Shown: in pieces, positions 81-26,950 of the stretch | Layout: each line of letters opens with the position of its first letter | Numbering within the stretch: position 1 is the stretch's first letter | DNA from: an uncultured Anaerolineales bacterium | Lineage (GTDB): Bacteria; Chloroflexota; Anaerolineae; Anaerolineales; E44-bin32 | Length of the DNA stretch: 60,557 nucleotides | Direction of reading: 5' to 3' | Assembly: GCA_965603565.1 (NCBI GenBank) | Contig: CBFDDM010000002.1 | Location: 1-60,557, forward strand | Program-made: the position numbers and the translations under genes | Notes under the pieces: generated by a model | The model's input: only the letters and a program-made list of their open reading frames with translations | Told to the model about the DNA's origin: nothing | Databases searched by the model: none

Positions 81-1502
81 ATGCAGCCCATTCTGCTAAA
101 AGGTGGCACGATTGTCACAGATGAGGAGATCCGCGAACAGGATCTCATGATCATTGGTGAGGAAATCGCTGATATCGGCGAGGAAATTTCCCCGGATGGT
201 GCTGAAATTGTTGATGTACACGGAAAATTGATCATGCCTGGGGGGATCGATCCGCATACGCATTTCGACCTGCCGATGTTCAATACGGTTTCTTCGGATG
301 ACCATTACACAGGGCATAAAGCCGCCGCGTTTGGCGGTACAACGACCGTGATGGATTTTGTGCCGCAGGATCATGAGAGTCTGGCAGATTCGATCAAAGT
401 GTGGAACGAGAAAGCCGTGCCGAAAGCGGCCATCGATTACAGTTTCCACATGAATATCACGCGTCTGGACGATCGAGTGCTTGAAGAGATCCCCACACTG
501 CTAGACAAAGGTATCAGCACGCTGAAGATGTTCACCGCGTACAACGGCCGCTTGCGACTGCAGGATGGGGAGATATTCAGGGTCATGCGCGTGGCGGCTG
601 AACACGGCATGCTTCCGATGGTACACGCGGAGAATGGCGACGTAATTGATATCCTGACCAGTGAAGCGCTGGTTGAAGGGAAGACCGATCCCGTATGGCA
701 CGCCTATACGCGCCCAGCCTGGGGCGCAGTGGAAGCGGTACTTCGCAGCGCGGCACTGGCTGCTCAAGCAGGTTCTGCGCTTTACGTCGTGCATGTCAAC
801 ACGGCTGGCGGCCTCGCTCAAATCCAATATGCACGTGAACAGGGATTGCCAGTGATGGGTGAGACCTGCCCGCAGTACCTGTTCTTCACGGTTGAACACC
901 TCATGCGCCCTGATGGATCCAAATGGATATGCTCGCCGCCGATGCGAACAGAGGACGACAACGAAGCGCTCTGGCAGGGACTTTCAAGCGATATGCTGCA
1001 GGTTATGGGAACGGACCACTGCCCGTTCTTCTTTGATGGAAGGACACCGATCGAGTACGAAGGCGAAAAGGTGGCCATACCAGGTAAAGAATTGGGAGCG
1101 GATGACTTTACCCGGATCCCTAACGGCTTGCCAGGGGTTGGCGACCGAATGCCAATTCTGTGGTCATACGGTGTAGGGCAAGGCCGCATCACGATGCGCC
1201 AATTTGTCGCTATGACGAGTACGAATCCAGCTAAAATCTTCGGCCTGTATCCAAAGAAGGGCGCGCTGCTGCCAGGTTCAGATGCTGATATCGTCGTCTG
1301 GGATCCTGAGCGAGAGTTGACTTATGGTGTTGGACATGCGCGCCACCGGACGGATTACAACCTGTATGAAGGCTGGGAACTCAAGGGTTACCCCGAAAAG
1401 GTTTACTTGCGCGGACACCTGATCGTCGATGGGGAGCATTGGTTGGGGGAGCGCGGCATGGGACGGTTTCTGAAGCGTAAACCAGGCGCACCCGTACTGT
1501 AG
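81..1502 (+). CDS. Dihydropyrimidinase / D-hydantoinase (cyclic amidohydrolase)
   Basis: 473-aa ORF. Metal-site motif GGIDPHTHFDLP plus VHAENGD and MGTDHCPF are typical of the hydantoinase/dihydropyrimidinase family. GAGGA lies upstream of ATG 81. Confidence 0.88.
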   Translation: MQPILLKGGTIVTDEEIREQDLMIIGEEIADIGEEISPDGAEIVDVHGKLIMPGGIDPHTHFDLPMFNTVSSDDHYTGHKAAAFGGTTTVMDFVPQDHESLADSIKVWNEKAVPKAAIDYSFHMNITRLDDRVLEEIPTLLDKGISTLKMFTAYNGRLRLQDGEIFRVMRVAAEHGMLPMVHAENGDVIDILTSEALVEGKTDPVWHAYTRPAWGAVEAVLRSAALAAQAGSALYVVHVNTAGGLAQIQYAREQGLPVMGETCPQYLFFTVEHLMRPDGSKWICSPPMRTEDDNEALWQGLSSDMLQVMGTDHCPFFFDGRTPIEYEGEKVAIPGKELGADDFTRIPNGLPGVGDRMPILWSYGVGQGRITMRQFVAMTSTNPAKIFGLYPKKGALLPGSDADIVVWDPERELTYGVGHARHRTDYNLYEGWELKGYPEKVYLRGHLIVDGEHWLGERGMGRFLKRKPGAPVL

Positions 1503-1651
1503 ATATCTTGCTGATGAATAGGTGGGGTGCTAGAATCTAGATTACCCCGAGCTGGTGGTCGCCTCGAGCATACAGTTGGGCGGCGTCGGGCAGCCTCGTC
1601 CGTCGAAAAGTGCCAGTTAGCTCATATATGTAAGGCTAGTGAGCGAAACAT

Positions 1652-2530
1652 ATGAGCTTATGGAAGAACTACTTGATCCCGACTTCAATTGAAGATGCGG
1701 TGAACACTTTAAAGAGGGCTAACGGCCCGGTGGCTATCATCGCGGGTGGCACGGACTTGCTTCTGGACCTGGAGCAGGGGCGCCATTCGCCGGTAGACAC
1801 GCTTGTCGACATCACCCGGATCGAAGAATTCCGGCAGGTGCGAGTTGATCCTGAGGGCATCTTCATCGGCTCCGCCGTAACTCATAATGACATTATCCAC
1901 AACCCCATATTGAAAGACCATGCACAGTGCCTGGTGGAGGGCTGTGGACTCATCGGTGGTCCTCAGGTTCGAAATGTTGCCACGATCGGTGGCAACGTCG
2001 CCCATGCCCTTCCGGCGGGTGACGGCACCATCGCGCTTGTCGCGCTTGATGCAGATGCATGCATCGTGAACTCGGACGGTGAAACATGGCAGCCGATCGG
2101 CGAACTGTTTGCCGGTCCAGGCAAAACCAGATTTGACCGCACACAAGAAATCATCAAGGGGTTTCGAATCCAGCCCAAACACGAAAACGAAGCGTCTGCG
2201 TTCGACCGAGTCATGCGGCCGCAGGGTGTGGCGATCGCGATCCTCAACATGGCGGTTTGGATGCGGCTCGGCGCGGATCGCAATATCGAGCAGATCCGCA
2301 TCGCGGTTGGCCCGGGCGGACCGATACCATTCCGGGCTTATGAGCTTGAGGATTTTATGTGCGGCCAAAAGGCTGATGCGAACACGCTGCAGGATGCGGC
2401 CCAGGCGCTCTTGAACGAGATCCAATTGCGTACCAGCCCTTACAGGGCGACCGAGGCTTACCGCAAGCACCTGATCGCCACTCTGCTTCAGAGAACTGCT
2501 GACCGCATAGCGGAACGGGTCGGAGTGTAA
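1652..2530 (+). CDS. Mo-hydroxylase FAD-binding (medium) subunit, CoxM/XdhB/YgfM-like (set 1)
   Basis: 292 aa. Has the IIAGGTDLLLDL and IGGNVAHALPAGDG motifs of the FAD_binding_5 / CO-dehydrogenase flavoprotein family. Confidence 0.85.
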   Translation: MSLWKNYLIPTSIEDAVNTLKRANGPVAIIAGGTDLLLDLEQGRHSPVDTLVDITRIEEFRQVRVDPEGIFIGSAVTHNDIIHNPILKDHAQCLVEGCGLIGGPQVRNVATIGGNVAHALPAGDGTIALVALDADACIVNSDGETWQPIGELFAGPGKTRFDRTQEIIKGFRIQPKHENEASAFDRVMRPQGVAIAILNMAVWMRLGADRNIEQIRIAVGPGGPIPFRAYELEDFMCGQKADANTLQDAAQALLNEIQLRTSPYRATEAYRKHLIATLLQRTADRIAERVGV

Positions 2531-2567
2531 TCGAATTTGTTGTGTGTTGGTTTATGGAGAATATGTA

Positions 2568-5354
2568 ATGGCAGATCGAATGATCTTAACGGTGAATGGT
2601 AGAGAACACGAGCTCGAGGTTGGGCCCGGCGATATGCTCTCTGACGTGCTGCGTTATCGCCTCGGTTTGACGGGAACGAAGATCGCTTGCGCGGAAGCAG
2701 AATGCGGTTCCTGCACGGTGCTCATGGATGGTCAGACGGTGCTGGCTTGCACACTGCCGGCGATGAAAGCCTCCGGTAAGGAAGTCATGACCATCGAGGG
2801 ACTTCGTGAAAATGGAAATTTGCATCCGATTCAGGATGCCTTTGTAAAGCATGGTGCCGTCCAGTGTGGTTTTTGCATCCCCGGTCAGATCATGACCATT
2901 TACGCTCTCCTGACTAAGAATCCCGAGCCATCCGAAGGCGATATTCGCTATGCGCTGAAAGATACCCTCTGCCGCTGTGGCGCCTATCCGCGCATCGTCT
3001 CCGCCGTTCAAGCGGCAGGGGAGAGCTTGAGAACCGGTCAGCCAGTGACCGAGCCAGATTTATCCATATCCGGCGACGAACGGCTGGTCGGGGGTTACGC
3101 CTGGCGCCCGGACGCCATCGCAAAAGTGGATGGTACCGCCATGTACAGCGATGATTATGAATTTGCCGGCATGCTGCATGCTGCCGTGCTGCGTGCCGGA
3201 ATCCCGCATGGGGTCGTACGCAGGATCGATTTTGATCGTGCCCGGGAGATGGAGGGCGTACATGCCGTCCTAACGGCAGCGGACATTCCGGGGCGCGTGA
3301 ATCACGGGGTTGTCTATCATGACTGGCCGGCGCTCGTGGGTGTAGGTGAGAAAGTCCGCTACGTCGGGGACGCGCTCGCAATCGTCGTCGCCGAAAGCCG
3401 TAAGGTCGCTCAAAAAGCATTGGCCGAGATCGAGGTCCAGATCGAAGCCCTGCCAGTCGTCAGCGATCCGGTCGAGGCACACCAGCCGGAGGCGCCGGCA
3501 GTTCATGAAAATGGCAACCTGCTCAAGCACATCAAAGTACGTAAAGGTGATATTGATATAGGTTTCGAGCAGGCCGACGTGATCTTTGAGCAGGTATATA
3601 CGACTCCCGCCATGGACCATGTCTTCATGGAGCCGGAGTGCAGCATTGCGCGTGTTACCGATGATGGACGCGTTGAGGTGTACGTAGGTTCGCAGATCCC
3701 ATACGAAGACCGTGAGCAGATTGCCGCTGCTCTGGGGATTGAGGAAAGCCGGGTGCGCGTGATCGGTACGCTGATCGGCGGCGGCTTCGGCGGTAAGGAA
3801 GACATTGCCGGGCAGATTCACGCGGCGTTAGCCGCTTACCATACCGGGAGACCGGTTAAAATCCTCTTCGATCGCAACGAGAGTCTAATCGTGCACCCCA
3901 AGCGCCATGCAACTCAAATAAGAGTGCGTCTTGGCGCCAAGAAGGATGGCGCGCTCGTCGCGGTGCAGACGGAACTTTATGGCGATACGGGTGCATACGC
4001 ATCACTGGGTGACAAGGTCATGGGTCGAGCGACGACTCATTCGGCCGGTCCCTACATCATCCCACACGTGAAATCAGACTGCTACGCAATGTACACCAAT
4101 AACCCACCGGCAGGCGCTTTCCGCGGATTTGGCGCGCTGCAGTCCATTTTCGCCATCGAGACAGCCATGGATGAATTGTCCGAAGTGCTGGACATCGATC
4201 CAGTCGAGCTGCGGCGCATGAACGCCCTTAAGGAAGGATCGATAACAAACACAGGACAGATGCTGAGCGAGAGTGTCGGGCTTCTGGAGTGCATCGATCA
4301 CGTGCATACACGTCTGAAAGAAATTGCCGGTGATGATCCGTTTTCGCCTCAAGAGGTTGAAGGAATGCCGCACCTGCGGAGGGCGTGGGGGCTCACGCTG
4401 GCATTCAAGAACACCGGTTTGGGAGAAGGTGCGCCAGATCGCGCCACGGCTGAGATCGAATTATTTACCGATGGCACGGTCGAGGCGCGCACCTCCTCGG
4501 CGGAAATCGGACAGGGACTTGTGACCGTCTTACAGTTGGTGGCGGCTGAAGAGCTTGGTATGCCGCTCGACAAGGTGCGCGTGCTGCTCTCCGATACCGA
4601 TCTCACACCGGATGGTGGTCCCACCACCGGATCCCGCCAGACCTACATAAGCGGCAACGCAGTGAGGTACGCTGCAGGCGCGCTGCGTGAAGCGATATCC
4701 GCGACGCTCGCCGAGAAATACGATGTGCCGCCCGAATCGATCCGCTATGTGGAAGGCTTGGCGCAGGTTGATGGACACGAGATCAGCATGGGCCAGGCTG
4801 CTTCAATCATGAACGAGGAAGGCCGCAAACCGCTCGTTTCTTACGAGTACTGGGCTCCAGAAACCTACCCGTTGGAAACGGAGGGCGACAAACACTTCGC
4901 ATTTTCGTTCGCGGCTCAGGCAGCGCAGATTGAGATCGACCTGCTCACCGGACAGGTGAAAGTTCTGCGGGTAATCGCAGCCAATGATGTTGGACGTGCG
5001 ATCAACCCGCTCGGGTTGCTTGGACAGGTGGAGGGCGGTGTGATCATGGGCGTAGGCCACGCGCTCACCGAAGAATTCATCCTCGAGAGCGGTCTTGTCT
5101 GGACGGATCAGCTTGCGCGCTACCGTATGCCCTCGATCGAGCAAACGCCCGAGATCGAATCCATCGTGGTTGAGCATCCGACCGCAGAAGGCCCTTACGG
5201 AGCCAAGGGAGTCGGTGAAATTTCGACGATGCCGACCATCCCGGCGATCACAAATGCGGTCTACAATGCCTGCGGCGTGCGTCTTCGCACGATCCCAATA
5301 GACCAGGATTGGCTCGCTCTGGAGATCGCCCGGAAGGGGAACGATGGGCCCTGA
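2568..5354 (+). CDS. Fused [2Fe-2S] + molybdopterin-binding subunit of xanthine dehydrogenase family (XdhD-like, set 1)
   Basis: N-terminal FeS motifs CAEAECGSCTV, QCGFCIPG and CRCGAY are followed by Mo-binding domains (LIGGGFGGKED). GGAG lies 8 nt before ATG 2568. The track ORF begins at GTG 2544. Confidence 0.88.
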   Translation: MADRMILTVNGREHELEVGPGDMLSDVLRYRLGLTGTKIACAEAECGSCTVLMDGQTVLACTLPAMKASGKEVMTIEGLRENGNLHPIQDAFVKHGAVQCGFCIPGQIMTIYALLTKNPEPSEGDIRYALKDTLCRCGAYPRIVSAVQAAGESLRTGQPVTEPDLSISGDERLVGGYAWRPDAIAKVDGTAMYSDDYEFAGMLHAAVLRAGIPHGVVRRIDFDRAREMEGVHAVLTAADIPGRVNHGVVYHDWPALVGVGEKVRYVGDALAIVVAESRKVAQKALAEIEVQIEALPVVSDPVEAHQPEAPAVHENGNLLKHIKVRKGDIDIGFEQADVIFEQVYTTPAMDHVFMEPECSIARVTDDGRVEVYVGSQIPYEDREQIAAALGIEESRVRVIGTLIGGGFGGKEDIAGQIHAALAAYHTGRPVKILFDRNESLIVHPKRHATQIRVRLGAKKDGALVAVQTELYGDTGAYASLGDKVMGRATTHSAGPYIIPHVKSDCYAMYTNNPPAGAFRGFGALQSIFAIETAMDELSEVLDIDPVELRRMNALKEGSITNTGQMLSESVGLLECIDHVHTRLKEIAGDDPFSPQEVEGMPHLRRAWGLTLAFKNTGLGEGAPDRATAEIELFTDGTVEARTSSAEIGQGLVTVLQLVAAEELGMPLDKVRVLLSDTDLTPDGGPTTGSRQTYISGNAVRYAAGALREAISATLAEKYDVPPESIRYVEGLAQVDGHEISMGQAASIMNEEGRKPLVSYEYWAPETYPLETEGDKHFAFSFAAQAAQIEIDLLTGQVKVLRVIAANDVGRAINPLGLLGQVEGGVIMGVGHALTEEFILESGLVWTDQLARYRMPSIEQTPEIESIVVEHPTAEGPYGAKGVGEISTMPTIPAITNAVYNACGVRLRTIPIDQDWLALEIARKGNDGP

Positions 5355-5976
5355 GCGCGGCGATCGTTGGCTTCATTGGGCGCGTGAGATTCAGGCGCTG
5401 GCCAAAACCGGTCAGCATTACGCTCGCAACGCATTTGAGGAGGAGCGGGCGGAGAGGTTGATCGAAATCGCGGCCGAGATGATCGCCGCGAACAGCAACC
5501 TTTCATTGGATCAACTGAACCTCGCATTTGAGCAGCAGCCAGGCTATGTCACACCAAAGGTGGACGTGCGTGGCGCAGTTTTTAATCAGGGCAAATTGCT
5601 GATGGTTCGGGAGGTGATGGACGGGGGTTGGACGCTTCCGGGGGGATGGGCGGATGTCGGCGAGCCACCTGCGCTGGCGACGGAGCGTGAAGTGCTTGAA
5701 GAAGCCGGCCTTGAGGTAAAGGCAATGCGGCTGGTCGGTGTCTACGATGCCAACCGCGTGCCCGGATCGCTGGACCTCTTCCATGCTTATAAGTTAATTT
5801 TCATGTGTGATTTGATCGGTGGTGAGATCAGCACGAGCCACGAGACCTCCGCTGGCGGCTTCTTCACACCGGACAAGCTGCCCGAGCCACTTTCCGGATT
5901 CCGCACGACGCGTCGGCATCTTGAGGATATTTTCCGGGCGTATGAGCATGAAAACATGCCGACGGTTTTTGATTGA
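5344..5976 (+). CDS. Nudix hydrolase with Nudix N-terminal helical domain
   Basis: Nudix box GGWADVGEPPALATEREVLEEAGLEV. Overlaps the upstream hydroxylase gene by 11 nt. Confidence 0.85.
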   Translation: MGPERGDRWLHWAREIQALAKTGQHYARNAFEEERAERLIEIAAEMIAANSNLSLDQLNLAFEQQPGYVTPKVDVRGAVFNQGKLLMVREVMDGGWTLPGGWADVGEPPALATEREVLEEAGLEVKAMRLVGVYDANRVPGSLDLFHAYKLIFMCDLIGGEISTSHETSAGGFFTPDKLPEPLSGFRTTRRHLEDIFRAYEHENMPTVFD

Positions 5977-5990
5977 AAGGGAAACCGCTG

Positions 5991-7346
5991 ATGTTAATCA
6001 CAAATGCCAGGGTTATCACATGGACAGGTGAAGAAATACTTGAAGATCACGCGGTGCTCATCAAGGATGGGAAGATCGCTGCAATCGGGCCCACCAAAAA
6101 ACTGGGCGAGAAGCATCAGGACGAGGAGCGCTTGGACGCTGATGGCAAATTCTGCATGCCCGGCAATATATGCGCCCACACCCATTTCTACGGCGCGTTT
6201 GCACGCGGCATGGCTATCCCGGGCAGAGCGCCAAAGGATTTTCCCGAGATCCTGAACAAGCTATGGTGGCCGCTGGATAAGGCGCTGCGTGAGGAAGATG
6301 TACGCTACTCGGCGCTGGTTTGTTTGGTCGATGCCATCAAGCATGGGACAACGACATTGATCGATCATCACGCTTCACCTAACGCCATTTCTGGCTCACT
6401 GGATGTCATCGCGGATGCAGTTGATCGGTCCGGCTTGCGAGCCGTGCTGTGTTATGAGGTCACCGACCGCGATGGAGATGAGAAAGCGCTCGCGGGGATC
6501 AAAGAGAACGTGCGTTTTATCCAGCGTTCAGCGGGTGGGAACGTCGCGGGAGGCCGAGTACGCGGCACGTTTGGGCTGCATGCCAGCCTGACATTGTCGG
6601 ACGAGACGCTGGAAGCCTGCCGCAATGCGGCGCCGGAGGGGACGGGGTTCCATATCCATGTGGCTGAGCACGAATCCGATGAATACGACAGCCTTGCGAA
6701 AGCGGGCACCAGGGTGGTAGATCGGCTGCTTGATCATGGTATTCTAGGAGCGCACACGATCGTCGCTCATGCCATCCACGTGGATGCGCGTGAGGTGGAG
6801 ATCCTTGCGGAAACGGGTACCTGGGTCACACACCAGCCGCGGTCGAATATGAACAACGGGGTAGGCGCCGCAGCGGTTGAATCGATGTTGAGAGCCGGGA
6901 TCCCGGTGTGTCTGGGCAACGATGGTTTCTCCAATGCGATGTGGGCGGAATGGAAGACAGCTTATCTGCTGCATAAGGTCTGGCACCGCGATCCGCGCCG
7001 TATGCAGGGTGATACGGTTGTTGAACTTGCGGTTGAAAATAACGCGGCCCTCGCCGGTGTCTTCTTCCCTGACATGCCACCTGGCAAAGTCGAAGTAGGT
7101 GCGGCTGCCGACCTGATCCTGGTTGATTACCACCCAACCACGCCGCTCACGATCGGAAATTTGCCCTGGCACATCCAGTTTGGGTTCCATGAGTCAATGA
7201 TCAAGACAACGATCGTGGCCGGTGAAGTACTGATGCACGAAGGCGAGCTGCTGACGTTGGATGAAGAAGAGATCACCGAACGTGCCCGCGCCCTCGTCCC
7301 GGATGTATGGGAGCGCTACCGGACGTTCGTACCAGCCGACGAATAA
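5991..7346 (+). CDS. ssnA: SsnA-like aminohydrolase (chlorohydrolase/guanine-deaminase-type amidohydrolase)
   Basis: MLITNARVITW... N-terminus with PGNICAHTHFYGAFARGM and HVAEHESD motifs of the amidohydrolase superfamily, SsnA-like. ATG 5991 has AAGGGA upstream. The track start is TTG 5973. Confidence 0.7.
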   Translation: MLITNARVITWTGEEILEDHAVLIKDGKIAAIGPTKKLGEKHQDEERLDADGKFCMPGNICAHTHFYGAFARGMAIPGRAPKDFPEILNKLWWPLDKALREEDVRYSALVCLVDAIKHGTTTLIDHHASPNAISGSLDVIADAVDRSGLRAVLCYEVTDRDGDEKALAGIKENVRFIQRSAGGNVAGGRVRGTFGLHASLTLSDETLEACRNAAPEGTGFHIHVAEHESDEYDSLAKAGTRVVDRLLDHGILGAHTIVAHAIHVDAREVEILAETGTWVTHQPRSNMNNGVGAAAVESMLRAGIPVCLGNDGFSNAMWAEWKTAYLLHKVWHRDPRRMQGDTVVELAVENNAALAGVFFPDMPPGKVEVGAAADLILVDYHPTTPLTIGNLPWHIQFGFHESMIKTTIVAGEVLMHEGELLTLDEEEITERARALVPDVWERYRTFVPADE

Positions 7347-7369
7347 ATGAGCAATGATTGGGAGAAAAT

Positions 7370-8811: not shown

Positions 8812-8856
8812 TCAGATATGATCTTGAGTAGAGAGGATAGACAAAAGGGATTCAAC

Positions 8857-16753: not shown

Positions 16754-16784
16754 GCGTACCAGTTTGAGCGAACAGCGAGTATCG

Positions 16785-18955: not shown

Positions 18956-20383
18956 ATGTGGAAACGTTATTACACTCCAAATAACCTCGATCAGGCGCTT
19001 GAACTGCTCGCCGATGCGAGCCCGAAGGCGCGCATCATGGCCGGTGCGACCGATCTCATCCTGGAACTCGAACGCGGGATTCGGCCGGATGTGGATACCG
19101 TGATCGACATCACACGCATCCCGGGGCTGGATTCGATCGTCCTCGAGGATGGTTGGATCCAGCTTGGACCGCTGGTAACCCATAATCACTGCGCAGGATC
19201 CAATTTGATCCGCGATCACGCGTTCGCGCTCGCTCATGCGTGCTGGGAAGTTGGCGCTCCGCAGATTCGCAATCGCGGGACGATCGCTGGCAACCTGATC
19301 ACCGCTTCGCCCGCAAACGATTCGATCACACCGCTGATGGCGTTGGGCGCGCAAGTCACGCTCCGCTCCAAGGAAGGCAAGCGGGTCGTGCAGCTCAGCG
19401 AATTTTATGAAGGCGTGCGCAAAACCGTGATGAAACCCGATGAGGTCATGGTGGCTATCGCCTTCCCGGTTCCTTCAGAGGCGACGCAAACTGCTTTCTA
19501 CAAACTCGGACTGAGAAAGGCTCAGGCGATTTCGGTGGTCAACGCCGCTGCGCTGGTAGAACTCTCCGATGGAAAGGTGCAGATGGCGCGCATAACGCTT
19601 GGTTCGGTCGCGCCCAAGATCATCCATGCCACCGCGGCGGAGGATTACCTGATAGGCAAAGACTTCTCCGACGAGGTCATCGAAGAGGCGGCACGCCTGG
19701 CGATGGATGCCGCCACACCGATCGATGACATTCGCGGGTCGGCCGACTACCGGCGCTACATGGTTGAGGTTTGCGTACGCAGGTCGTTGAAACGTATCGC
19801 AACCGGCGAAGAGCGGGAAGTTATCCCCGAGCATCCCGTCATGCTGTGGGGACCAAAAGAAGCGATCGTGAGAACCACACTGGAGGTGCCATTCGAACAC
19901 GATGGTGATACTGTGATCGAGACGACGATTAACGGCAAGCCCTACCGGTTCGAGAGCGGATATGAGAAGACATTGCTGAGGCTGTTGCGTGAAGAAGGAC
20001 ACCTCACCGGAACGAAGGAAGGCTGCGCCGAGGGCGAGTGTGGGGCCTGCACCGTATTCCTGGACGGCGCGGCTGTGATGGCATGTATGGTGCCTGCGCC
20101 TAGAGCGCACAGGGCTGAGATCGTCACAATTGAGGGTCTCGCCAGCGGGGAGCAGCTGCATCCGATCCAGCAGGGTTTCATCGAGGAAGGCGCTGTGCAG
20201 TGCGGCTACTGCACGCCGGGTTTCCTCATGTCTGGCGCCAAACTGCTCGAAGAACGGCCGACTCCGGATGTCGATGAAATCAAGCAATCGATCACCGGCA
20301 ACCTGTGTCGATGTACTGGCTATTACAAAATTGTGGCTGCTTTTGAGCGAGCAGCCGCACTACTTGAGGAACAGCAGGCTTAA
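18956..20383 (+). CDS. Fused FAD-binding + [2Fe-2S] subunit of Mo hydroxylase (set 3)
   Basis: N-terminal half has MAGATDLILELE and GTIAGNL (FAD). C-terminal half has CAEGECGACTV, QCGYCTPG and CRCTGY (FeS). GAGGGAG RBS. Confidence 0.85.
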   Translation: MWKRYYTPNNLDQALELLADASPKARIMAGATDLILELERGIRPDVDTVIDITRIPGLDSIVLEDGWIQLGPLVTHNHCAGSNLIRDHAFALAHACWEVGAPQIRNRGTIAGNLITASPANDSITPLMALGAQVTLRSKEGKRVVQLSEFYEGVRKTVMKPDEVMVAIAFPVPSEATQTAFYKLGLRKAQAISVVNAAALVELSDGKVQMARITLGSVAPKIIHATAAEDYLIGKDFSDEVIEEAARLAMDAATPIDDIRGSADYRRYMVEVCVRRSLKRIATGEEREVIPEHPVMLWGPKEAIVRTTLEVPFEHDGDTVIETTINGKPYRFESGYEKTLLRLLREEGHLTGTKEGCAEGECGACTVFLDGAAVMACMVPAPRAHRAEIVTIEGLASGEQLHPIQQGFIEEGAVQCGYCTPGFLMSGAKLLEERPTPDVDEIKQSITGNLCRCTGYYKIVAAFERAAALLEEQQA

Positions 20384-20436: not shown

Positions 20437-20817
20437 ATGGGACGAGATACCTTTCGATTCCGGCAGTTGGATAAGGAGCGCGAATCGCGCGGCGAGATTG
20501 ACCCCATCTGGCGAGGGGTCGGATGCCTGATCATCTCCGGCTTTGCGACCGCCGGTTACTTCTTCGCTAATTGGTTTGTGCGTGCCAATGCCGTCAACGG
20601 GTGGATTTACATTCCCCGGGAGGCTTACTATCCATCGTTCGCCCCATTTCTGGGTGATGGACTGCTCATCAAACTTGTGGTCGCGCTGCTCTTCTTATTG
20701 CTCAGCTATGGGCTGATGTCCTTTATCTATGCGGTGTTTTTCCCGATTAAACCGAAGGAAGAGGACGCCCAACCCCCAAGGCGCAGACCGAAGCGGCAGA
20801 AGCGGCGGAAGACCTAG
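20437..20817 (+). CDS. Small membrane protein (2 predicted TM helices, Arg/Lys-rich tail), unknown function
   Basis: 126 aa with two hydrophobic stretches and a C-terminal PPRRRPKRQKRRKT tail. GGGAG RBS. The stop lies 2 nt before the next ATG. Confidence 0.55.
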   Translation: MGRDTFRFRQLDKERESRGEIDPIWRGVGCLIISGFATAGYFFANWFVRANAVNGWIYIPREAYYPSFAPFLGDGLLIKLVVALLFLLLSYGLMSFIYAVFFPIKPKEEDAQPPRRRPKRQKRRKT

Positions 20818-20819
20818 AG

Positions 20820-22526
20820 ATGGATCGACAAGTCCCCCGGACCGGCTCAGAAGAGATCGAGCTTTATATCCGCACGTACTATTCACTGCTGCGCTCGACG
20901 ACCGATGTGCGTGTGCGTTCGCTGGAGGAAGTGCACACCAACATGGGATCTTCGCTTCATCTTGAAGCGCGCTCGATGAAGCTGGACGTCTCAGCGCTGA
21001 TTTACAGCTCACTGCGCTTGCCGGATTGCATCGTCGATGTCAAACGGGTTGTGCTTGGCCAGAGCCTGCGCGCTTTCATCAAGCGCGGCATCGGCAACAT
21101 CGAGACGTGGGAGATGGCGACGGCCAAGGCGCGTCGACGGCGCTCTTTCTTCGACGGTGATTCGACCCTGGCTTGCTATATCGGCAGCCGTTCTGATATC
21201 GATGATATGGTCCCGATCCTGACCGCCTATCAGATCGAGTGGAACAAGCTCCATCGATTACTGCAAGGTGAGCAGGTAAGGAAATTTCTCGAAGCACCAC
21301 TTGATTCGGAGGAGGGGTTGGCGGTGCTTGCCACCGGGATAGGCGTCGAGACGGAGGAGATTCTACGGCTGCGTACGGTCTGGGAAGATGACTTCTGGTC
21401 GACACTGAAGGCAATATCCGAGGATGAGAAAAACCTGAGCATTCGATTGCTGGCCGGGTCTTTGATGGACTACCGTCAGGCGACACAGAGCTGGTGGGAG
21501 CGTGTGGAAGAGATGGTGCCATCGGTGCTGGATCGACCAGTGTACTTTGTCTCCAGCAATGCACACAGCATTGTCAACCTGATTTCGGGCTATGCGTTGA
21601 GGCACGAGGACGAACTCGTCCGCTACCTGGAATATCCAGAGTGCTCCGACCTACTTATGGAGTGGGAGGACATCAAAGCACGCGAAGTGCCCTCGAGTCG
21701 TGAGAATTTTCTTTACTACGTGCTTAAGAAATATGTGCGGTCTGAAGCCGGAAAACAAGCGCGCATAGACCGAGCCCAGACGGAGATGGGCTCCGGGATA
21801 ACGCGCGTCGAAAGCCTGACGGGCTTTGACGTCCAGGTCCAGGTTTTCTCACTGCGCGACATGATTCCCGATCAGATTGACCCCCGGCTTCAAGTGTCTG
21901 GTTATCAGGACCTGAAGGACAGCGATGCGCTCATCGTCAACATCGATTACCCGCTCGGGATGTCCGCATACGTCATCCTTTCGCACATCGCCACCCGCTT
22001 CGGCGAACTGCGCGGTGCGTACATCATGGGCAAGGCCGCGACACTGAACGGAGTCCTCGGTGACGTTATGATCCCTTCCGTCGTCCATGATGAGCACTCG
22101 CAGAACACATATCTGTTCGAGAACTGCTTCAGCGCAGCCGATATCCATGACGAATTGGTGTATGGAACCGTGCTCGATAACCAGAAGGCCGTCAGTGTGC
22201 GTGGCACCTTCCTGCAAACACCGCAGTACATGGACGTCTTCTACCGTGAGGGTTACACCGATATCGAGATGGAGGCTGGCCCATACCTTTCGAGCGTGTA
22301 TGAGTTATTCCGGCCTAAACGCTACCCGACGGACGAAATTGTAAACATGTATGGCCTTCCGTATGATTTGGGAATACTGCATTACGCCTCGGACACGCCG
22401 CTTACGCAGGGACTCAACCTGGGCGCCGGATCGCTTTCTTATTTCGGTATGGATCCGACGTATGCTACGAGTGTGGCGATCCTGCGGCGCATATTTGATC
22501 TGGAAATCGAGCAATTACGTACATGA
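20820..22526 (+). CDS. AMP-nucleosidase-like protein: unrecognised ~380-aa N-terminal region + nucleoside phosphorylase (PNP/UDP-1) fold C-domain
   Basis: The C-terminal part (IVNIDYPLGMSAYVILSHI..., IMGKAATLNGVLGDVMIPSVVHDEH, TDIEMEAGPYL, ILHYASDTPL) parallels the catalytic domain of AMP nucleosidase and uridine phosphorylase. I recognise no family for the N-terminal part. Confidence 0.55.
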   Translation: MDRQVPRTGSEEIELYIRTYYSLLRSTTDVRVRSLEEVHTNMGSSLHLEARSMKLDVSALIYSSLRLPDCIVDVKRVVLGQSLRAFIKRGIGNIETWEMATAKARRRRSFFDGDSTLACYIGSRSDIDDMVPILTAYQIEWNKLHRLLQGEQVRKFLEAPLDSEEGLAVLATGIGVETEEILRLRTVWEDDFWSTLKAISEDEKNLSIRLLAGSLMDYRQATQSWWERVEEMVPSVLDRPVYFVSSNAHSIVNLISGYALRHEDELVRYLEYPECSDLLMEWEDIKAREVPSSRENFLYYVLKKYVRSEAGKQARIDRAQTEMGSGITRVESLTGFDVQVQVFSLRDMIPDQIDPRLQVSGYQDLKDSDALIVNIDYPLGMSAYVILSHIATRFGELRGAYIMGKAATLNGVLGDVMIPSVVHDEHSQNTYLFENCFSAADIHDELVYGTVLDNQKAVSVRGTFLQTPQYMDVFYREGYTDIEMEAGPYLSSVYELFRPKRYPTDEIVNMYGLPYDLGILHYASDTPLTQGLNLGAGSLSYFGMDPTYATSVAILRRIFDLEIEQLRT

Positions 22527-22574
22527 CGAAAGTGGGCTCGCTGCCCTTTGATTGGTGAAACACAGGAGCATGCA

Positions 22575-24794
22575 ATGACGCTGATTGGCGAATCTTCACT
22601 CCGGGTTGACGCTTACGGTAAGGTGATCGGAGAGACGCTCTACCCGGGCGATATCGACCGACCTAACCAGGCCTATATGAAGATTCTCTTTGCGGGGCGC
22701 CCGCATGCCCGCATCACCCATCTCGACGTCTCCAGTGCGGAAGCCATGGAAGGTGTGCTGGGTGTTTTCACCGCACGGGATGTGCCCAATAACGAGTACG
22801 GCTTGATCATGCCTGACCAGCCCGTGCTGTGCGGGCCTGGTTCTGAAAAACCATATGCCGACCATGTGCGTTTCGTAGGGGATCAGATCGCGGTTGTGGT
22901 TGCGGAGAGCGAGGTTATCGCCGAGAGGGCGATCGCCGAAATCATGGTGGAATTTGAAGAACTGCCCGTGGTTCTCGATCCGGTCGCAGCGATGAAAGAT
23001 GAAAGCGATCTCGTCCATCCAGACAAGGGCACCAACATATTCTGTCACTACCGCATTCGCAAAGGTGAGCTTGAGGATGCATTCGAAGAAGCTGCCGCCG
23101 TGGTTGAGGCGGAATATCACACCCCGGCGCAGGAACATGCGTACCTCCAGCCGGAGGCGGGTCTGGCGTATATCGATGAAGAGGGGCGCATAACTATCGA
23201 GGTCGCCGGGCAATGGACGCACGAAGACCAGGAGCAGGTCGCGCACGCGCTGGATGTTCCACTGGAGAAGGTGCGCATTGTCTACCCGGCTATCGGCGGC
23301 GCATTCGGTGGTCGCGAGGACATGTCGGTGCAGATCGTGCTTGCGCTGGCGGTCATGCGACTGCACGAACGAGGTATCGACCGTCCGATTAAGATCATCT
23401 GGTCGCGAGAAGAATCGATCTTCGGGCATCATAAACGACATCCATTTGTGCTGCGTGCCAGGTGGGCTGCCGATGAAGAAGGTCATGTGACTGCTGCCCA
23501 TATGGAAGTGATCCAGGACGGTGGGGCGTACGCGTACACTTCAACGAAGGTATTGGGCAACGCTACCTTGATGTGCACCGGGCCTTACGAGATCCCCAAT
23601 GTGCATGTCGATGCCTTCTCGGTCTACACAAATCACGTTCCAGGAGGCGCGTTCCGTGGTTTTGGTGGTCCGCAGGGTTGCTTCGCCGCCGAAGCGCAGA
23701 TGGACAAAATCGCAGAGGCGCTGGGCATGGACCCGGTTGAGATCCGCACTCGAAATCTGCTTAAAGAAGGATCGCTGCTATCGGTGATGACCCCGCTGCC
23801 TGAAGGCGTCAGCATCGGTCAGGTCGTCGAGGCGGCCGCATTGAAAGGCGGGTGGACAAAGGGAGAGCGAGGTTGGGTGAAACCGTCTGACAAAGAAGCG
23901 GGCGTTCTCGACCGGGGACCGCGTAAGCGGGGCGTCGGGTTTTCTTGTGGTTTCAAGAACGTCGGCTTCTCATTCGGTGCACCGGAGCGGGCTTTCGCCG
24001 AGATCGAACTGCACGGGGGCATTGAGATCGAAGAGGTTGTGCTGCATCACGCCGGTGCCGATGTCGGGCAGGGAGCGCATACTGTCTTCGCCCAGATGGC
24101 AGCCGAGGCCGTAGGCGTGCCGCTTGAAAAAGTGCGGCTGGACGTCTCTGACACAGCGACGACAAGCGATTCGGGTTCCGCCTCCGCCTCCCGAATGACC
24201 TTCATGGCGGGCAATGCCATCCGCGGTGCGGCAGAAGCTGCCCTGGCAAAGTGGCGCAGCGAGGAGCGACCGGCAATCGCACGGTTTGAATACAAACCGC
24301 CGGCGACGACGCCTCTCGATGATCAGACCGGTGAATCTAACCCCAATTTTGCCTACGGCTATGTGGCACAGGCGGTGAGCGTGGAGGTGGACACCGAAAC
24401 GGGTGAACTGACCATCCTGGATGTTGTTTCGGCCAATGACGTCGGCAAGGCGATCAACCCTCAGCAGGTGGAAGGCCAGATCGAGGGCGGCGTGGTTCAA
24501 GCCGCGGGCTACGCGGTGCTTGAGGATTTCAAACAGGAAGACGGGTACGTACAAACCGACCAGATGTCGACCTACTTGATCCCGACGATCCTCGATATCC
24601 CCGATCGTGTGCAATCAGTTATATTAGAAGTGGAAGACCCGCTCGGACCCTGGGGGGCGCGCGGTATGGCAGAGATGCCATTCATCCCGTTCGCGCCGGC
24701 GATCGTCGCGGCGGTGCACGATGCGGTAGGCGTATGGTACGACGAATTCCCGCTCACACCAGAGCGTATCCTGCGCGGGTTGGGAAAACTATAA
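22575..24794 (+). CDS. Molybdopterin-binding large subunit, xanthine dehydrogenase family (set 3)
   Basis: About 740 aa with AIGGAFGGREDMS, GAFRGFGGPQ and MAEMPFIP motifs. GGAG lies 7 nt before ATG 22575. The track start is TTG 22548. Confidence 0.88.
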   Translation: MTLIGESSLRVDAYGKVIGETLYPGDIDRPNQAYMKILFAGRPHARITHLDVSSAEAMEGVLGVFTARDVPNNEYGLIMPDQPVLCGPGSEKPYADHVRFVGDQIAVVVAESEVIAERAIAEIMVEFEELPVVLDPVAAMKDESDLVHPDKGTNIFCHYRIRKGELEDAFEEAAAVVEAEYHTPAQEHAYLQPEAGLAYIDEEGRITIEVAGQWTHEDQEQVAHALDVPLEKVRIVYPAIGGAFGGREDMSVQIVLALAVMRLHERGIDRPIKIIWSREESIFGHHKRHPFVLRARWAADEEGHVTAAHMEVIQDGGAYAYTSTKVLGNATLMCTGPYEIPNVHVDAFSVYTNHVPGGAFRGFGGPQGCFAAEAQMDKIAEALGMDPVEIRTRNLLKEGSLLSVMTPLPEGVSIGQVVEAAALKGGWTKGERGWVKPSDKEAGVLDRGPRKRGVGFSCGFKNVGFSFGAPERAFAEIELHGGIEIEEVVLHHAGADVGQGAHTVFAQMAAEAVGVPLEKVRLDVSDTATTSDSGSASASRMTFMAGNAIRGAAEAALAKWRSEERPAIARFEYKPPATTPLDDQTGESNPNFAYGYVAQAVSVEVDTETGELTILDVVSANDVGKAINPQQVEGQIEGGVVQAAGYAVLEDFKQEDGYVQTDQMSTYLIPTILDIPDRVQSVILEVEDPLGPWGARGMAEMPFIPFAPAIVAAVHDAVGVWYDEFPLTPERILRGLGKL

Positions 24795-24798
24795 ATTG

Positions 24799-25617
24799 AT
24801 GGATCAAAAAAGACCGCTCGTGTTGATTCGCGGGGGCGGCGATCTGGCCAGCGGCGTTGCGCTGCGGCTGCACCGTTCCGGGTTTGGGGTGCTCATCACC
24901 GAAGTCGAGCAACCACTCGCGGTGCGGCGAGCGGTGGCGTTCGCCGAGGCGATCTACACCGGCGAGATGCAGATTGAGGAAGTGACCGGCCGCCGCGTTC
25001 AAGACATTAAAGAGACAGCCAGCGCAGTACGCGAGCGGGTTATCCCCGTTATTATCGATCCACAAGCGCAGATTCGAGAAGAATTGAAGCCTGCCGCAAT
25101 CATCGACGCGCGCATGCGCAAGAGCGCGCCCGAACTGGCGATCGCAGCCGATGAAGTTGTCATCGGTTTGGGACCGGGCTTCACTGCCGGCCTCGATTGT
25201 CATGCCGTGATCGAAACCAATCGCGGTCATGCAATGGGGCGTGTGATCTGGGATGGTTCCGCGCAGAAGAATACCGGCGTCCCTGAGGCGGTGCAGGGTT
25301 ATGACGTCGACCGTGTATTGAGGGCGCCTGCACACGGCGTTCTCACGGAAGGACTCGATATCGGGACAGTAGTTGAAGAGGGCGATGTATTGGCGCGTGT
25401 GGGTGATCACCCGGTTCAGGCGACTTTCAACGGCGTGCTGCGCGGAATGGTCCATGATGGACTGGAGGTCAACGAAGGAATGAAGATCGGTGATCTGGAC
25501 CCACGCGGTATCGTCGAGCACTGTTTTACCGTGTCGGATAAGGCTCTGGCGATAGGGGGCGGTGTCCTCGAAGCGCTGCTCTCGTTCGATGCGATCCGGA
25601 ATGCTTTAGGTAATTGA
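24799..25617 (+). CDS. yqeB: YqeB-family selenium-dependent molybdenum hydroxylase system protein
   Basis: LVLIRGGGDLASGVALRLHRSGFGVLITEVEQPLAVRRAVAFAEAIYTGE matches my memory of the YqeB/EF2563 family N-terminus. Length is about 270 aa. Confidence 0.7.
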   Translation: MDQKRPLVLIRGGGDLASGVALRLHRSGFGVLITEVEQPLAVRRAVAFAEAIYTGEMQIEEVTGRRVQDIKETASAVRERVIPVIIDPQAQIREELKPAAIIDARMRKSAPELAIAADEVVIGLGPGFTAGLDCHAVIETNRGHAMGRVIWDGSAQKNTGVPEAVQGYDVDRVLRAPAHGVLTEGLDIGTVVEEGDVLARVGDHPVQATFNGVLRGMVHDGLEVNEGMKIGDLDPRGIVEHCFTVSDKALAIGGGVLEALLSFDAIRNALGN

Positions 25618-25618
25618 G

Positions 25619-26950
25619 ATGAAACTTTCGAAGGCATTGCGGGTCGAAGCGGGCCATGTTATTGCATTCGTCGGTGCGGGCGGCAAGACCAGCGCCATTC
25701 GCCAGCTTGTCCAGGAACTTGCTGGCAAGTTCCCTGTGCTGGTCACGACCTCCACCAAAATGGCGCTGGATGAGAAAGATCTCACCGACGAGCATAAGGT
25801 GATCGAGGACGCTGGTGGTTTGCTCTCAGTACTATCAGATTGGGATCGGGAAAGTACATTGCTGCTGACCGCGCCGCAGTTTCCAGATGAGCTAAAGTGG
25901 GATGGTCTGCCGCTCGCGCAGCTTCAGGACGTGATCGAGTTCAGCCGGGAGAAGAAGGTCGTCCTCCTCATCGAAGCGGATGGCGCTGCAGGACGCTCAT
26001 TGAAAGCACCGGCGGAGCATGAGCCGGCCTTGCCACACAACCTGGACTTGCTGGTTCCAGTTGTGGGGATTGATGCTGTCGGTGAAAGCGTCGACGGCGA
26101 TCTTGTCCATCGCTCGGAGCGGTTGCGCGCACTTCTGAATATTGATTCGGGGACAGAGTTGACGGTCGAACATGTCGCAAGGTTGCTCAGGCATCCCTCG
26201 GGTGGCTTGAAAGCGTTGCCTCTGCATGCTGTATTGAGGGTACTCATTAACAAAGTCACCACGAAGGATAGGCTTAAGACCGCCCAACAAATTTCCGAAC
26301 TCGCCCTGGAAGAGCCGAAGATCAAGAGCGTGATAATCGGCGCCATGCAGAAGAGAGAGCCGGTGCGGGAGGCGCGCAGCCGGGTGGCTGCGGTCGTGCT
26401 TGCGGCCGGGGAGTCGAAACGGTTTAAAAGCAATAAGATGCTGCGGAAATGGCACGGCAAACCCTTGCTTGAACATGTTCTCGATGCCGTGAGGGCGAGC
26501 AAGGTGCACCAGAAAGTTCTGGTCCTCGGCCACGAACAAGAAAAGGTCCTGGCAACCGTTAACCACGAGGGTTTCCAGATCGTTCAAAACCAGGACTGGA
26601 AAGAAGGGCAGAGCACATCCGTTCAGGTGGGGCTGGAGGCGGTCATCGATGATGTCGAAGCGGCAATTTTCCCGCTTGGCGATATGCCTAAGGTCGACTC
26701 CGGGCTGATAGACACATTGATCGATCGACACGCCGAGACACTTGCGCCGATCGTCGCACCGCAGGTGGAGGGAGAGTGGGGCAACCCCGTGCTGTTTGAC
26801 AGTGTCACCTTCCCCGTTTTCTCAGAGTTGACCGGCGATCGGGGGGCGAAGAAACTCTTTGCTCAATTTGACGTTGAAGCTGTAAGGTCGGATCCAGCCG
26901 CCGGGTGGGATGTCGATCATCCTGAGGATTTACAGACGACGAGATCGTAA
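25619..26950 (+). CDS. Fusion of YqeC-like selenium-dependent hydroxylase accessory protein and MocA/YgfJ-type Mo-cofactor cytidylyltransferase
   Basis: N-terminal half has VIAFVGAGGKTSAI (YqeC P-loop). C-terminal half has VAAVVLAAGESKRFKSNKMLRKWHGKPLLEHVLD and PLGDMP (MobA-like NTP transferase). Confidence 0.72.
   Translation: MKLSKALRVEAGHVIAFVGAGGKTSAIRQLVQELAGKFPVLVTTSTKMALDEKDLTDEHKVIEDAGGLLSVLSDWDRESTLLLTAPQFPDELKWDGLPLAQLQDVIEFSREKKVVLLIEADGAAGRSLKAPAEHEPALPHNLDLLVPVVGIDAVGESVDGDLVHRSERLRALLNIDSGTELTVEHVARLLRHPSGGLKALPLHAVLRVLINKVTTKDRLKTAQQISELALEEPKIKSVIIGAMQKREPVREARSRVAAVVLAAGESKRFKSNKMLRKWHGKPLLEHVLDAVRASKVHQKVLVLGHEQEKVLATVNHEGFQIVQNQDWKEGQSTSVQVGLEAVIDDVEAAIFPLGDMPKVDSGLIDTLIDRHAETLAPIVAPQVEGEWGNPVLFDSVTFPVFSELTGDRGAKKLFAQFDVEAVRSDPAAGWDVDHPEDLQTTRS

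Follow-up and report, generated by a model that had tools for sequence, protein, structure and literature searches.

The gene clusters with which Escherichia coli and Clostridium degrade urate were assigned in 2025 to a reductive pathway (Li et al. 2025, PMC12507026; Liu et al. 2025, bioRxiv 10.1101/2025.04.24.650524). In these studies, XdhD-YgfM was found to dehydroxylate urate to 2,8-dioxopurine (isoxanthine, or "yanthine"), the pathway was completed by YgeY, YgeW/UacY, and YgeX, and YqeBC and SelD were required for the selenium (Se)-dependent molybdenum (Mo) enzymes. The intervening dearomatization is carried out by YgfK, or by the PydA-like UacX in C. difficile, after which SsnA and HyuA open both rings (Li et al. 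2025). According to Li et al., YgfK alone gave no detectable product and SsnA was required, suggesting that the reduction is uphill and thermodynamically difficult. The replacement of YgfK by UacX, which is probably ferredoxin-linked, indicates that the reductase slot is exchangeable and that the electron donor depends on the lineage (Li et al. 2025). Here, a cluster of 23 genes is described in which the deazaflavin F420 may serve as the donor at this step. The cluster lies at positions 81-26950 of a 60,557-nt stretch of DNA from an uncultured Anaerolineales bacterium of the Chloroflexota (GenBank assembly GCA_965603565.1, contig CBFDDM010000002.1; the whole stretch is referred to as the window). 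It is read as the Anaerolineales version of the front half of the reductive urate pathway, made F420-dependent, and this reading is given a probability of about 0.6.

An F420-dependent yanthine reductase of the luciferase family has already been predicted in Chloroflexota from ssnA neighbourhoods (Li et al. 2025, PMC12507026; bioRxiv May 2025, Life Metab.). In the F420 passages of that paper, the prediction takes the form of one remark drawn from a 15-gene neighbourhood network; these passages report no assay, and contain nothing on the nesting of fno and cofCDE or on the Acidimicrobiales clusters described below. The gene family and the inference are the same as here, and the window is an example of that remark, which came from an analysis of ssnA neighbourhoods independent of the present one. 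The first-pass annotation of the window had stated that no described pathway couples F420 to Se/Mo hydroxylases; as far as the F420 passages of Li et al. go, that statement no longer holds for prediction, and still holds for experiment. Full-text literature searches returned no later characterization of the predicted reductase, and no purine-related role is listed in the 2021 review of F420.

Gene content and order of the cluster

The cluster consists of 23 open reading frames (ORFs), all on the plus strand, and its widest intergenic gap is 149 nt (1503-1651), in agreement with the gaps of less than about 150 nt first reported for it. The order of the central genes is ssnA-[fno-cofE-ppox-ntr-cofD-cofC]-LLM-thioesterase-ygfM-like-xdhD-like, where ntr is a nitroreductase gene and LLM encodes the luciferase-like oxidoreductase. 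Within the F420 block, the 4-nt ATGA-type overlaps at 9255, 9866, 10810, and 11436 were all borne out. Similar overlaps occur at 5973 (nudix/ssnA) and 13011 (thioesterase/FAD subunit), and 1-nt overlaps at 13760 and 18131, so that close packing is a property of the whole cluster and not of the F420 block only. The block begins 23 nt after ssnA if fno starts at its probable ATG (7370), or 11 nt after it if the upstream TTG (7358) is used, and the LLM stop codon lies 46 nt before the thioesterase gene; the nesting of the F420 module, as originally described, is real. Promoter and terminator consensus scans gave no excess over the shuffled expectation in the cluster and no plus-strand site in its intergenic gaps, and Rfam returned no riboswitch, leader, or other regulatory RNA within it. 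We infer that the genes are co-transcribed. Since the contig starts only 80 nt 5′ of the first gene, the operon may continue further upstream.

Family calls were made with Pfam gathering thresholds and NCBIfam cut-offs, and scores are given below against cut-offs in bits. All family assignments of the cluster genes held by one or the other, and the NCBIfam cut-offs were passed by D-hydantoinase, SsnA, Fno, CofE, PPOX, CofD, CofC, YqeB, and YqeC. The gene identities proposed at first, including those of the F420 and YqeB/YqeC genes, were thereby confirmed by profile hidden Markov models, XdhC and MocA by Pfam only, and LLM with scores below the cut-offs.

The best window match of each of E. coli XdhD, YgfM, SsnA, HyuA, YqeB, and YqeC lies inside the cluster. 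The E. coli cluster (ygeW-ygeX-ygeY-hyuA-yqeA-yqeB-yqeC-mocA-ygfK-ssnA-ygfM-xdhD) and the window have in common SsnA, HyuA, a YgfM/XdhD-like pair, YqeB, YqeC, MocA, and an XdhC-like domain, and they share the logic of a Mo-dependent dehydroxylation followed by ring reduction and two amidohydrolase ring openings. YgfK, YgeW, YgeX, YgeY, and YqeA are absent from the window, whereas two xanthine dehydrogenase (XDH)-family sets, DUF6909, a Nudix hydrolase, a CBS-pyrophosphatase, and a hotdog protein are additional to it. In E. coli, the order is ygfK-ssnA-ygfM-xdhD; in the window, by contrast, the F420-type LLM, Fno, and cofC/D/E genes are inserted between ssnA and ygfM, and the F420 genes and LLM thus occupy the neighbourhood expected for the ring reductase. 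E. coli YgfK, PreT, and PreA gave no tblastn match in the window at E ≤ 1e-3, which bears out the earlier remark that no dihydropyrimidine-dehydrogenase-type gene accompanies the hydantoinase. The cluster, first described as a generic super-operon for N-heterocycle catabolism, is better read as a variant of the reductive urate (2,8-dioxopurine) pathway.

Both amidohydrolases of that pathway have counterparts here. The D-hydantoinase/HyuA-like ring-opening enzyme (81-1502; TIGR02033 530 vs 393) aligns with E. coli HyuA along the whole length at 39% identity, and the SsnA amidohydrolase (5973-7346; NF005540 504 vs 444, TIGR03314 478 vs 455) is 33% identical to E. coli SsnA.

The luciferase-like protein

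The LLM protein (11436-12440) is a member of the Bac_luciferase family (Pfam PF00296, 245 bits). Its best-scoring NCBIfam matches are F420-type LLM models throughout, each below its cut-off, so that the assignment of F420 use to LLM rests on similarity. Comparison with the Protein Data Bank (PDB) placed it nearer to the F420 members than to the FMN members of the fold: the closest solved structures are Mer (E = 1e-40, ~300 residues), FGD1 (5e-18), and Adf (2e-11), whereas FMN enzymes were far weaker (SsuD, 4e-9). LLM is therefore closest, by these comparisons, to the F420-dependent luciferase-like hydride transferase type. Mer-type LLMs transfer a hydride from F420H2 to an electrophilic carbon. 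With Mer (PDB 8qq8, 1z69, 1ezw, and 1f07), LLM shares the fold and presumably a direct hydride transfer from F420H2 to a carbon adjoining ring nitrogens; it differs in falling under both Mer equivalog cut-offs, in its bacterial host, which has no methanogenesis context, and in its purine catabolic setting. LLM is proposed to be an F420H2-dependent oxopurine (yanthine) reductase, and to fill the slot held by YgfK or UacX elsewhere. Compared with the exchange seen in C. difficile, this would be a replacement by an unrelated fold, a luciferase-like TIM barrel, with a cofactor partly built by the operon itself.

The 120 best database homologues of LLM are all at least 85% identical to it, and the next full-length relatives among 50%-identity representatives are only 43-53% identical, indicating that LLM forms a subfamily of its own, as yet uncurated.

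Conservation of the arrangement

The arrangement was found in well over 100 Anaerolineales assemblies and is more than chance. Three samples of 80 loci each were compared, centred on LLM, on ssnA (unbiased for LLM), and on the XdhD-like gene. In the LLM-centred sample, the cluster genes are all co-directional, ssnA lies upstream in 56 of the 59 loci with enough upstream flank, and Mo hydroxylase genes are present in 49 of the 60 with enough downstream flank. The ssnA-centred counts refer to 54 loci with at least 6.5 kb downstream; LLM was found in 52 of these and fno, cofE, cofD, and cofC in 53-54, and YgfK, PreT, and PreA in none of them. Around the XdhD-like gene, LLM lies upstream in 62 of 68 loci, and a YgfM-like gene is present in 67. 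In a one-genome-per-species collection, the relatives of LLM, SsnA, and the XdhD-like protein belong to Anaerolineales or Anaerolineae (Chloroflexota), and include Anaerolinea thermophila, Bellilinea, Levilinea, Longilinea, Pelolinea, Ornatilinea, Brevefilum, and Ca. Villigracilis. Among species in culture, the cluster is carried by Anaerolinea thermophila, Levilinea saccharolytica KIBI-1, and Bellilinea caldifistulae GOMI-1.

LLM is the slowest-evolving gene of the cluster, with a median identity of 82% in the LLM-centred loci, compared with 73% for the XdhD-like protein, 65% for SsnA, 46-57% for the fno and cof products, and 36% for the YgfM-like protein. The possibility that this conservation is an artefact of choosing loci by LLM was considered and rejected: in the ssnA- and XdhD-centred loci listed, LLM remained at 77-84%, and most fno and cof products at 44-60%.

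The pairing of LLM with ssnA was also found in a second phylum. In 22 metagenome-assembled genomes of Acidimicrobiales (Actinomycetota), LLM lies between an XDH set of FAD, FeS, and Mo subunits and a convergent ssnA. The surrounding genes encode adenine deaminase, a second FeS/Mo enzyme, a YqeA-like carbamate kinase, YgeW-like and ornithine carbamoyltransferase-like carbamoyltransferases, and an 8-oxoguanine-deaminase-like protein; there are no cof genes nearby. The Acidimicrobiales LLM proteins are 58-68% identical to the window protein, with 63-68% in the best tblastn segment and a median of 62% by pairwise blastp. The ssnA-linked LLM proteins of the two phyla are thus nearer to each other (median 62%) than to a paralogue from Anaerolineae/Aggregatilineales (55%), which has cof genes and a Mo hydroxylase set nearby and no ssnA. 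A pairing that persists in a second phylum without cof genes ties LLM to SsnA and to purine catabolism independently of the cofactor genes.

A paralogous cluster of the Aggregatilineales type (L084, similar in L082) has the order fno-cofE-ntr-cofD-cofC-LLM, then xdhC-FAD/FeS-DUF6909-Mo, without ssnA. In L084, LLM is followed by an 852-aa protein (L084:11109-13667) with no Pfam or NCBIfam match, and then by a metallophosphoesterase and a HEAT-repeat protein.

Molybdenum hydroxylases, maturation, and accessory proteins

Three XDH-family sets are encoded (1652-5354; 13011-16753; 18956-20383 with 22548-24794), and the Mo subunits of all three score under the equivalog cut-offs. Set 1 comprises an FAD subunit (1652-2530; FAD_binding_5 and CO_deh_flav_C; XdhB-like at 207 bits, below cut-off) and a fused 2Fe-2S and molybdopterin subunit (2544-5354; Fer2, Fer2_2, Ald_Xan_dh_C, MoCoBD_1, and MoCoBD_2; TIGR03311 Se_dep_XDH 787 vs 830). 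The nearest structure of its Mo subunit is the D. gigas aldehyde oxidoreductase, followed by 4-hydroxybenzoyl-CoA reductase (4-HBCR), nicotinate dehydrogenase, and XDH; set 1 is likely a xanthine or purine hydroxylase. Set 3 comprises a fused FAD and 2Fe-2S subunit (18956-20383; FAD_binding_5, CO_deh_flav_C, Fer2, and Fer2_2) and a separate molybdopterin subunit (22548-24794; Ald_Xan_dh_C, MoCoBD_1, and MoCoBD_2; pucD-like, 571 vs 784).

The second set consists of a short YgfM-like FAD subunit (13011-13760), with FAD_binding_5 only and no CO_deh_flav_C, and a fused 2Fe-2S and Mo subunit (13760-16753). Of all window proteins, the latter is the one most similar to E. coli XdhD (36% identity, 1024 columns, 572 bits), and it has the same fused architecture, with its short partner immediately upstream; that partner is in turn the closest in the window to E. 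coli YgfM (27% along the full length). The "EG[KR]xP" loop around Glu606 of XdhD is shared by the XdhD-like protein and absent from XdhA. The nearest solved structure to its Mo subunit is the alpha subunit of 4-HBCR, an enzyme that works in the reductive, dehydroxylating direction. The protein is proposed, on these resemblances, to be the window counterpart of XdhD, and to dehydroxylate urate to 2,8-dioxopurine.

This nearest structure, and the neighbouring 4HBT-family gene, also led to a 4-HBCR-like system being considered for the trio of thioesterase, FAD, and Mo subunit genes. It was rejected because the 4-HBCR equivalog scores only 560 vs 995, with the XdhA and XdhD-family models scoring higher, and because the matches to E. 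coli XdhD and YgfM are reciprocal in architecture. The "thioesterase" itself is a hotdog-fold (4HBT/PaaI-like) protein (12487-13014; Pfam 4HBT, TIGR00369; PDB 2ov9, THEM4-like), and lies between the LLM and YgfM-like genes in 55 of 68 XdhD-centred loci. No thioester is expected in purine breakdown.

Both markers of the selenium-dependent Mo hydroxylase trait (of the Haft and Self type) adjoin the XDH-family genes and score over their cut-offs. YqeB (24796-25617; TIGR03309 350 vs 220), a marker of selenium-dependent Mo-cofactor maturation, matches the C-terminal half of E. coli YqeB at 52% identity, and YqeC (TIGR03172 151 vs 73) is fused to a MocA-type cytidylyltransferase (25619-26950; NTP_transf_3 123 vs 27; TIGR03310 150.5 vs 186, below cut-off). 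An XdhC-type Mo-cofactor insertion chaperone (18131-18934; XdhC_C 139 vs 29.7; XdhC_CoxI 80 vs 24.3; TIGR02964 123 vs 162, below cut-off) resembles the N-terminal half of E. coli YqeB (34% identity). SelD was not seen in the 60.5 kb of the window.

DUF6909 (20820-22526; PF21850, 750 bits) is encoded between the FAD/FeS and Mo subunit genes of set 3. A phmmer search against PDB sequences gave no meaningful match, and only fold comparison was informative. In an AlphaFold2 model (pLDDT 74, pTM 0.75), the C-terminal half resembles the nucleoside phosphorylase-I superfamily: its 50 best Foldseek matches in the PDB are all methylthioadenosine nucleosidase, purine nucleoside phosphorylase (PNP), uridine phosphorylase, or AMP nucleosidase (best E 3.6e-5, target TM ~0.5). 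The sequence also carries a PNP-like "DIEMEAGPY" motif. With a nucleoside-phosphorylase/nucleosidase fold predicted by the model, DUF6909 is probably a purine-base-releasing enzyme. Its 120 best database homologues are unnamed, and those with labelled sources are all of the class Anaerolineae.

Three further genes belong to the cluster. A Nudix hydrolase (5344-5976; Pfam Nudix_N and NUDIX), also present in 11 related loci, may trim nucleotides. A DHH-CBS-DHHA2 family II pyrophosphatase (16764-18131; Pfam DHH, CBS, and DHHA2; all PRK14869 models below cut-off) may pull the pyrophosphate-releasing reactions of CofC and MocA. The small protein at 20437-20817 (126 aa), in whose translation two hydrophobic segments of membrane-like character and a very basic C-terminus were read by eye, has no Pfam or NCBIfam match, and homologues were found at the equivalent position in related loci (e.g. 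L023:17001-17393).

F420 assembly genes

In bacterial F420 biosynthesis, the cofactor is made by FbiD/CofC, FbiA/CofD, FbiB (CofE fused to a nitroreductase), and FbiC (Bashiri et al. 2019, PMC6450877). The window shares CofC, CofD, and CofE with this system and differs in that the two parts of FbiB are encoded separately, on either side of a PPOX gene, in that the genes are embedded in a catabolic operon and not scattered, and in that FO synthase was not found in the window or in the locus flanks searched. The products of four genes of the block are over their equivalog cut-offs: Fno/NpdG, an NADPH:F420 oxidoreductase (7358-8032, or from the probable start at 7370; TIGR01915 172 vs 150; Pfam F420_oxidored), CofE, the F420-0:gamma-glutamyl ligase (8035-8811; TIGR01916 261 vs 181), CofD, of the 2-phospho-L-lactate transferase family (9866-10813; TIGR01819 319 vs 257), and the CofC/FbiD guanylyltransferase (10810-11439; TIGR03552 168 vs 105). 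A stand-alone nitroreductase resembling the FbiB C-domain (9255-9869; TIGR03553 140 vs 250, below cut-off; PDB 4xom, E 1e-28) is, by sequence, the likely dehydro-F420-0 reductase. Literature searches on F420 in Anaerolineae or in Anaerolinea thermophila returned nothing useful.

The PPOX-class (FDOR-B-like) protein is a predicted F420-dependent oxidoreductase (8818-9258; TIGR03618 95 vs 79; best PDB match 3f7e, E 1e-14, and also Rv1155). Its gene was found in 28 of the 80 LLM-centred and 44 of the 54 ssnA-centred loci. Where ppox and the nitroreductase gene are missing, the cofE-cofD slot is filled by a ~180-aa protein (family F12; L023:7856-8404 and 21 other loci, including Anaerolinea thermophila), which gives only a weak PRK13679 match and contains a pair of HxT-type motifs that recall those of 2H phosphoesterases.

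Proposed pathway and alternative readings

In the proposed pathway, purine bases would be oxidized to urate by sets 1 and 3, and urate would be dehydroxylated to 2,8-dioxopurine by the YgfM/XdhD-like pair (13011-16753). Fno would recharge F420 from NADPH, and with F420H2 as its hydride donor, LLM would reduce 2,8-dioxopurine at an electrophilic ring carbon. The dearomatized ring would be hydrolysed at once by SsnA, and the second ring would then be opened by the hydantoinase. CofC, CofD, CofE, and the FbiB-C-like reductase would supply the F420 tail, and XdhC, YqeB, and YqeC-MocA would mature the Mo/Se cofactor. F420H2 is an obligate hydride donor with a potential slightly lower than that of NAD(P)H (reviewed in PMC8498797). 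We infer the substrate of LLM, its use of F420H2, and the direction of electron flow from the gene neighbourhood and from the resemblances described above.

Several observations weigh against this reading. The proteins of the cluster are known here from sequence alone. LLM scores under every curated F420 LLM cut-off (182 vs 276 and 174 vs 349 for the two Mer equivalogs), and the XdhD-like (TIGR03313 681 vs 1102) and YgfM-like (TIGR03312 66 vs 241) proteins are under the cut-offs of their families. YgeY, YgeW/UacY, YgeX, and YqeA gave no match in the window, in the 80 LLM-centred loci, or in the 54 ssnA-centred loci; the downstream enzymes may be encoded elsewhere in the genome. An M20 dipeptidase gene, divergent just upstream of ssnA in the Anaerolinea/Bellilinea group (L023:3289-4683, minus strand, and 13 other loci), encodes a candidate for the downstream ureido-cleaving step, with a PRK08201 score of 504 bits and weak similarity to YgeY (25-29% over ~130 residues). 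FO synthase (CofG and CofH, or FbiC) was not found in the window or in the flanks of 106 loci (L001-L107, excluding the E. coli locus L081); the search was for CxxxCxxC in ORFs of at least 250 aa, judged by reading the surrounding sequence and not by a family search. Only five matches were obtained, none of them plausible, and the one in the window lies inside the XdhD-like gene. A second F420-type LLM (29246-30319, minus strand; TIGR03560 188 vs 231) lies outside the operon, 2.3 kb past the cluster, so that F420 is probably not exclusive to the operon.

Two populations of loci also complicate this reading. No Mo-subunit gene was found within 10 kb in 35 of the 37 ssnA-centred loci with full flanks, including Ca. 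Villigracilis; these core-only loci read ssnA-fno-cofE-(ppox)-ntr-cofD-cofC-LLM (e.g. L118, L145, L148, L164, L175, L181, L188, and ~28 more). Some of them have genes for a TetR regulator and an NMT1/THI5-type ABC transporter after the core. Ahead of the core, 54-60 of the 80 ssnA-centred loci have genes for a beta-lactamase-like protein, a CT398-like coiled-coil/zinc-ribbon protein, and an ~850-aa protein with both NACHT and HEAT parts. The adjacency of cofCDE to yqeB/yqeC, which the first-pass annotation had put forward as a trait to be sought in related genomes, is therefore not the conserved one: the constant unit is ssnA with fno, the cof genes, and LLM, and its adjacency to Mo/Se genes varies. 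Some of the closest relatives are among the roughly 12 of 68 XdhD-centred loci in which a PreT-PreA-type flavoenzyme adjoins LLM (L193, L191, L195, L199-L201, L208, L214, L228, L233, L251, and L261); L017 and L069 are further cases, and most of these loci hold a second SsnA. In L193 (2441-6441), PreT and PreA are joined in a single 834-aa ORF, after which a second bona fide SsnA (541 vs 444) is encoded. The pair lies directly upstream of the YgfM/XdhD-like genes, which is the E. coli order ygfK-ssnA-ygfM-xdhD, and in L200, the pair and the cof genes are present without LLM. Where both pairs co-occur, the LLM/SsnA pair may have a different substrate. The core-only and dual-reductase loci, which are new findings of the present analysis, both fit a non-orthologous displacement in the reductase slot, and leave room for LLM and SsnA acting on a different oxopurine.

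The core of ssnA, F420 genes, and LLM might accordingly degrade another heterocycle (another oxopurine, a pyrimidine, or a pterin-like compound), with adjacency to the XdhD-like gene reflecting the clustering of related functions and not consecutive steps. The core-only loci with their TetR and transporter flanks, and the canonical reductase and SsnA pair found directly upstream of YgfM/XdhD in about 12 close relatives, speak for such a core, and Mer, the closest characterized enzyme, acts on a pterin derivative. Yet the window SsnA passes the curated SsnA model, LLM and SsnA are the only candidate reductase and hydrolase pair beside the XdhD-like enzyme in the window, and the Acidimicrobiales context, with its adenine deaminase, 8-oxoguanine-deaminase-like protein, XDH sets, YgeW, and YqeA, is unmistakably one of purine catabolism; another substrate is considered unlikely. 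That the genes merely lie side by side, F420 being a general cofactor whose genes were inherited beside ssnA by happenstance, is a very remote prospect. The cof-adjacent loci are all from Anaerolineae-class Chloroflexota except for one contig labelled Gammaproteobacteria, so shared ancestry could keep the order, and the second F420-type LLM lies outside the cluster. Against this, the order is kept across genera in which the cof proteins are only 46-57% identical and the flanking genes vary, the blocks are joined by overlapping start and stop codons, and the pairing of LLM with ssnA recurs in another phylum with a different gene order.

The roles of the individual redox proteins could also be distributed differently. 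F420 might be the direct redox partner of the Mo/Se hydroxylases, as acceptor for the oxidative enzymes, which the first-pass annotation had offered as one of two roles, or as donor for the XdhD-like dehydroxylase. The F420 genes are indeed nested among three hydroxylase sets, the YgfM-like FAD subunit is unusually short and allows no prediction of its donor, and the clostridial DOPDH was reported not to use NAD(H), from which it follows that donors vary in this enzyme family. However, no enzyme of the XDH family is known to use a deazaflavin, neither purine nor xanthine is mentioned in the 2021 F420 review, and standard FAD and 2Fe-2S modules are present in all three sets. The cofactor needs no Mo enzyme to explain it, given Fno, which links F420 and NADP, and two direct F420-type hydride transferases; moreover, the F420 module is kept where Mo enzymes are absent nearby, and in Acidimicrobiales, Mo enzymes and LLM cluster without cof genes. 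A direct coupling of this kind is therefore held to be improbable. Of the two roles first offered for F420, that of hydroxylase acceptor is disfavoured, and that of donor for a ring step by LLM, which travels with ssnA in two phyla and has F420 hydride transferases as its closest structures, is retained; overall, the earlier interpretation is partly supported. It is a speculative and improbable extension that F420 is the hydride currency of the whole pathway, fed by the hydroxylases, directly via their FAD subunits or via Fno, and driving both reductive steps (dehydroxylation of urate by the YgfM/XdhD-like enzyme and dearomatization by LLM), with FO scavenged from nearby F420 producers such as methanogens, a source suggested because the operon holds tail-assembly genes only. 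If this were true, the cluster would be the first deazaflavin-coupled Mo hydroxylase system, and would imply a cross-feeding dependence for a catabolic cofactor. The ring reductase might instead be the PPOX protein (8818-9258), with LLM in another role, such as the reduction of F420 from some substrate. PPOX passes a curated F420 family cut-off, and the 2021 F420 review names the reduction of activated C=C bonds in heterocycles as a reaction of FDOR enzymes. Its patchy occurrence in both samples, its replacement by the unrelated ~180-aa protein in 22 loci, and the failure to detect it in the Acidimicrobiales clusters by the same tblastn scan make this assignment highly improbable, whereas LLM is near-universal and far more conserved.

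Chromosomal setting

The remainder of the window is ordinary chromosome, with aspS, 6S RNA, recA, recX, rny, and a 2-oxoacid dehydrogenase complex. A short-chain dehydrogenase/reductase gene follows shortly after the cluster in the opposite orientation (28060-28950, minus strand), and a large BTAD/NB-ARC/TPR regulator is encoded beyond the second LLM gene (30764-33826, plus strand). The 6S RNA (40541-40713, plus strand; 69 bits) lies between aspS and recA, and a T-box leader (54357-54659, minus strand; 101 bits) was found upstream of a gene for a TrpB-like pyridoxal phosphate enzyme (52934-54340).

Implications

The new content of the locus is a variant, a proposed F420 version of a pathway worked out in 2025. 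Its value is limited by the earlier publication of the central idea, as a prediction of a single line. The operon illustrates how a catabolic pathway can carry its own cofactor-assembly and recharging genes. If the proposed reading is correct, F420, after NAD(P)H and ferredoxin, would be a third and unrelated solution for the hardest step of the reductive urate pathway. It would also give F420 a role in primary catabolism, namely purine fermentation, in strictly anaerobic Chloroflexota, of a kind abundant in digesters, sediments, and activated sludge.

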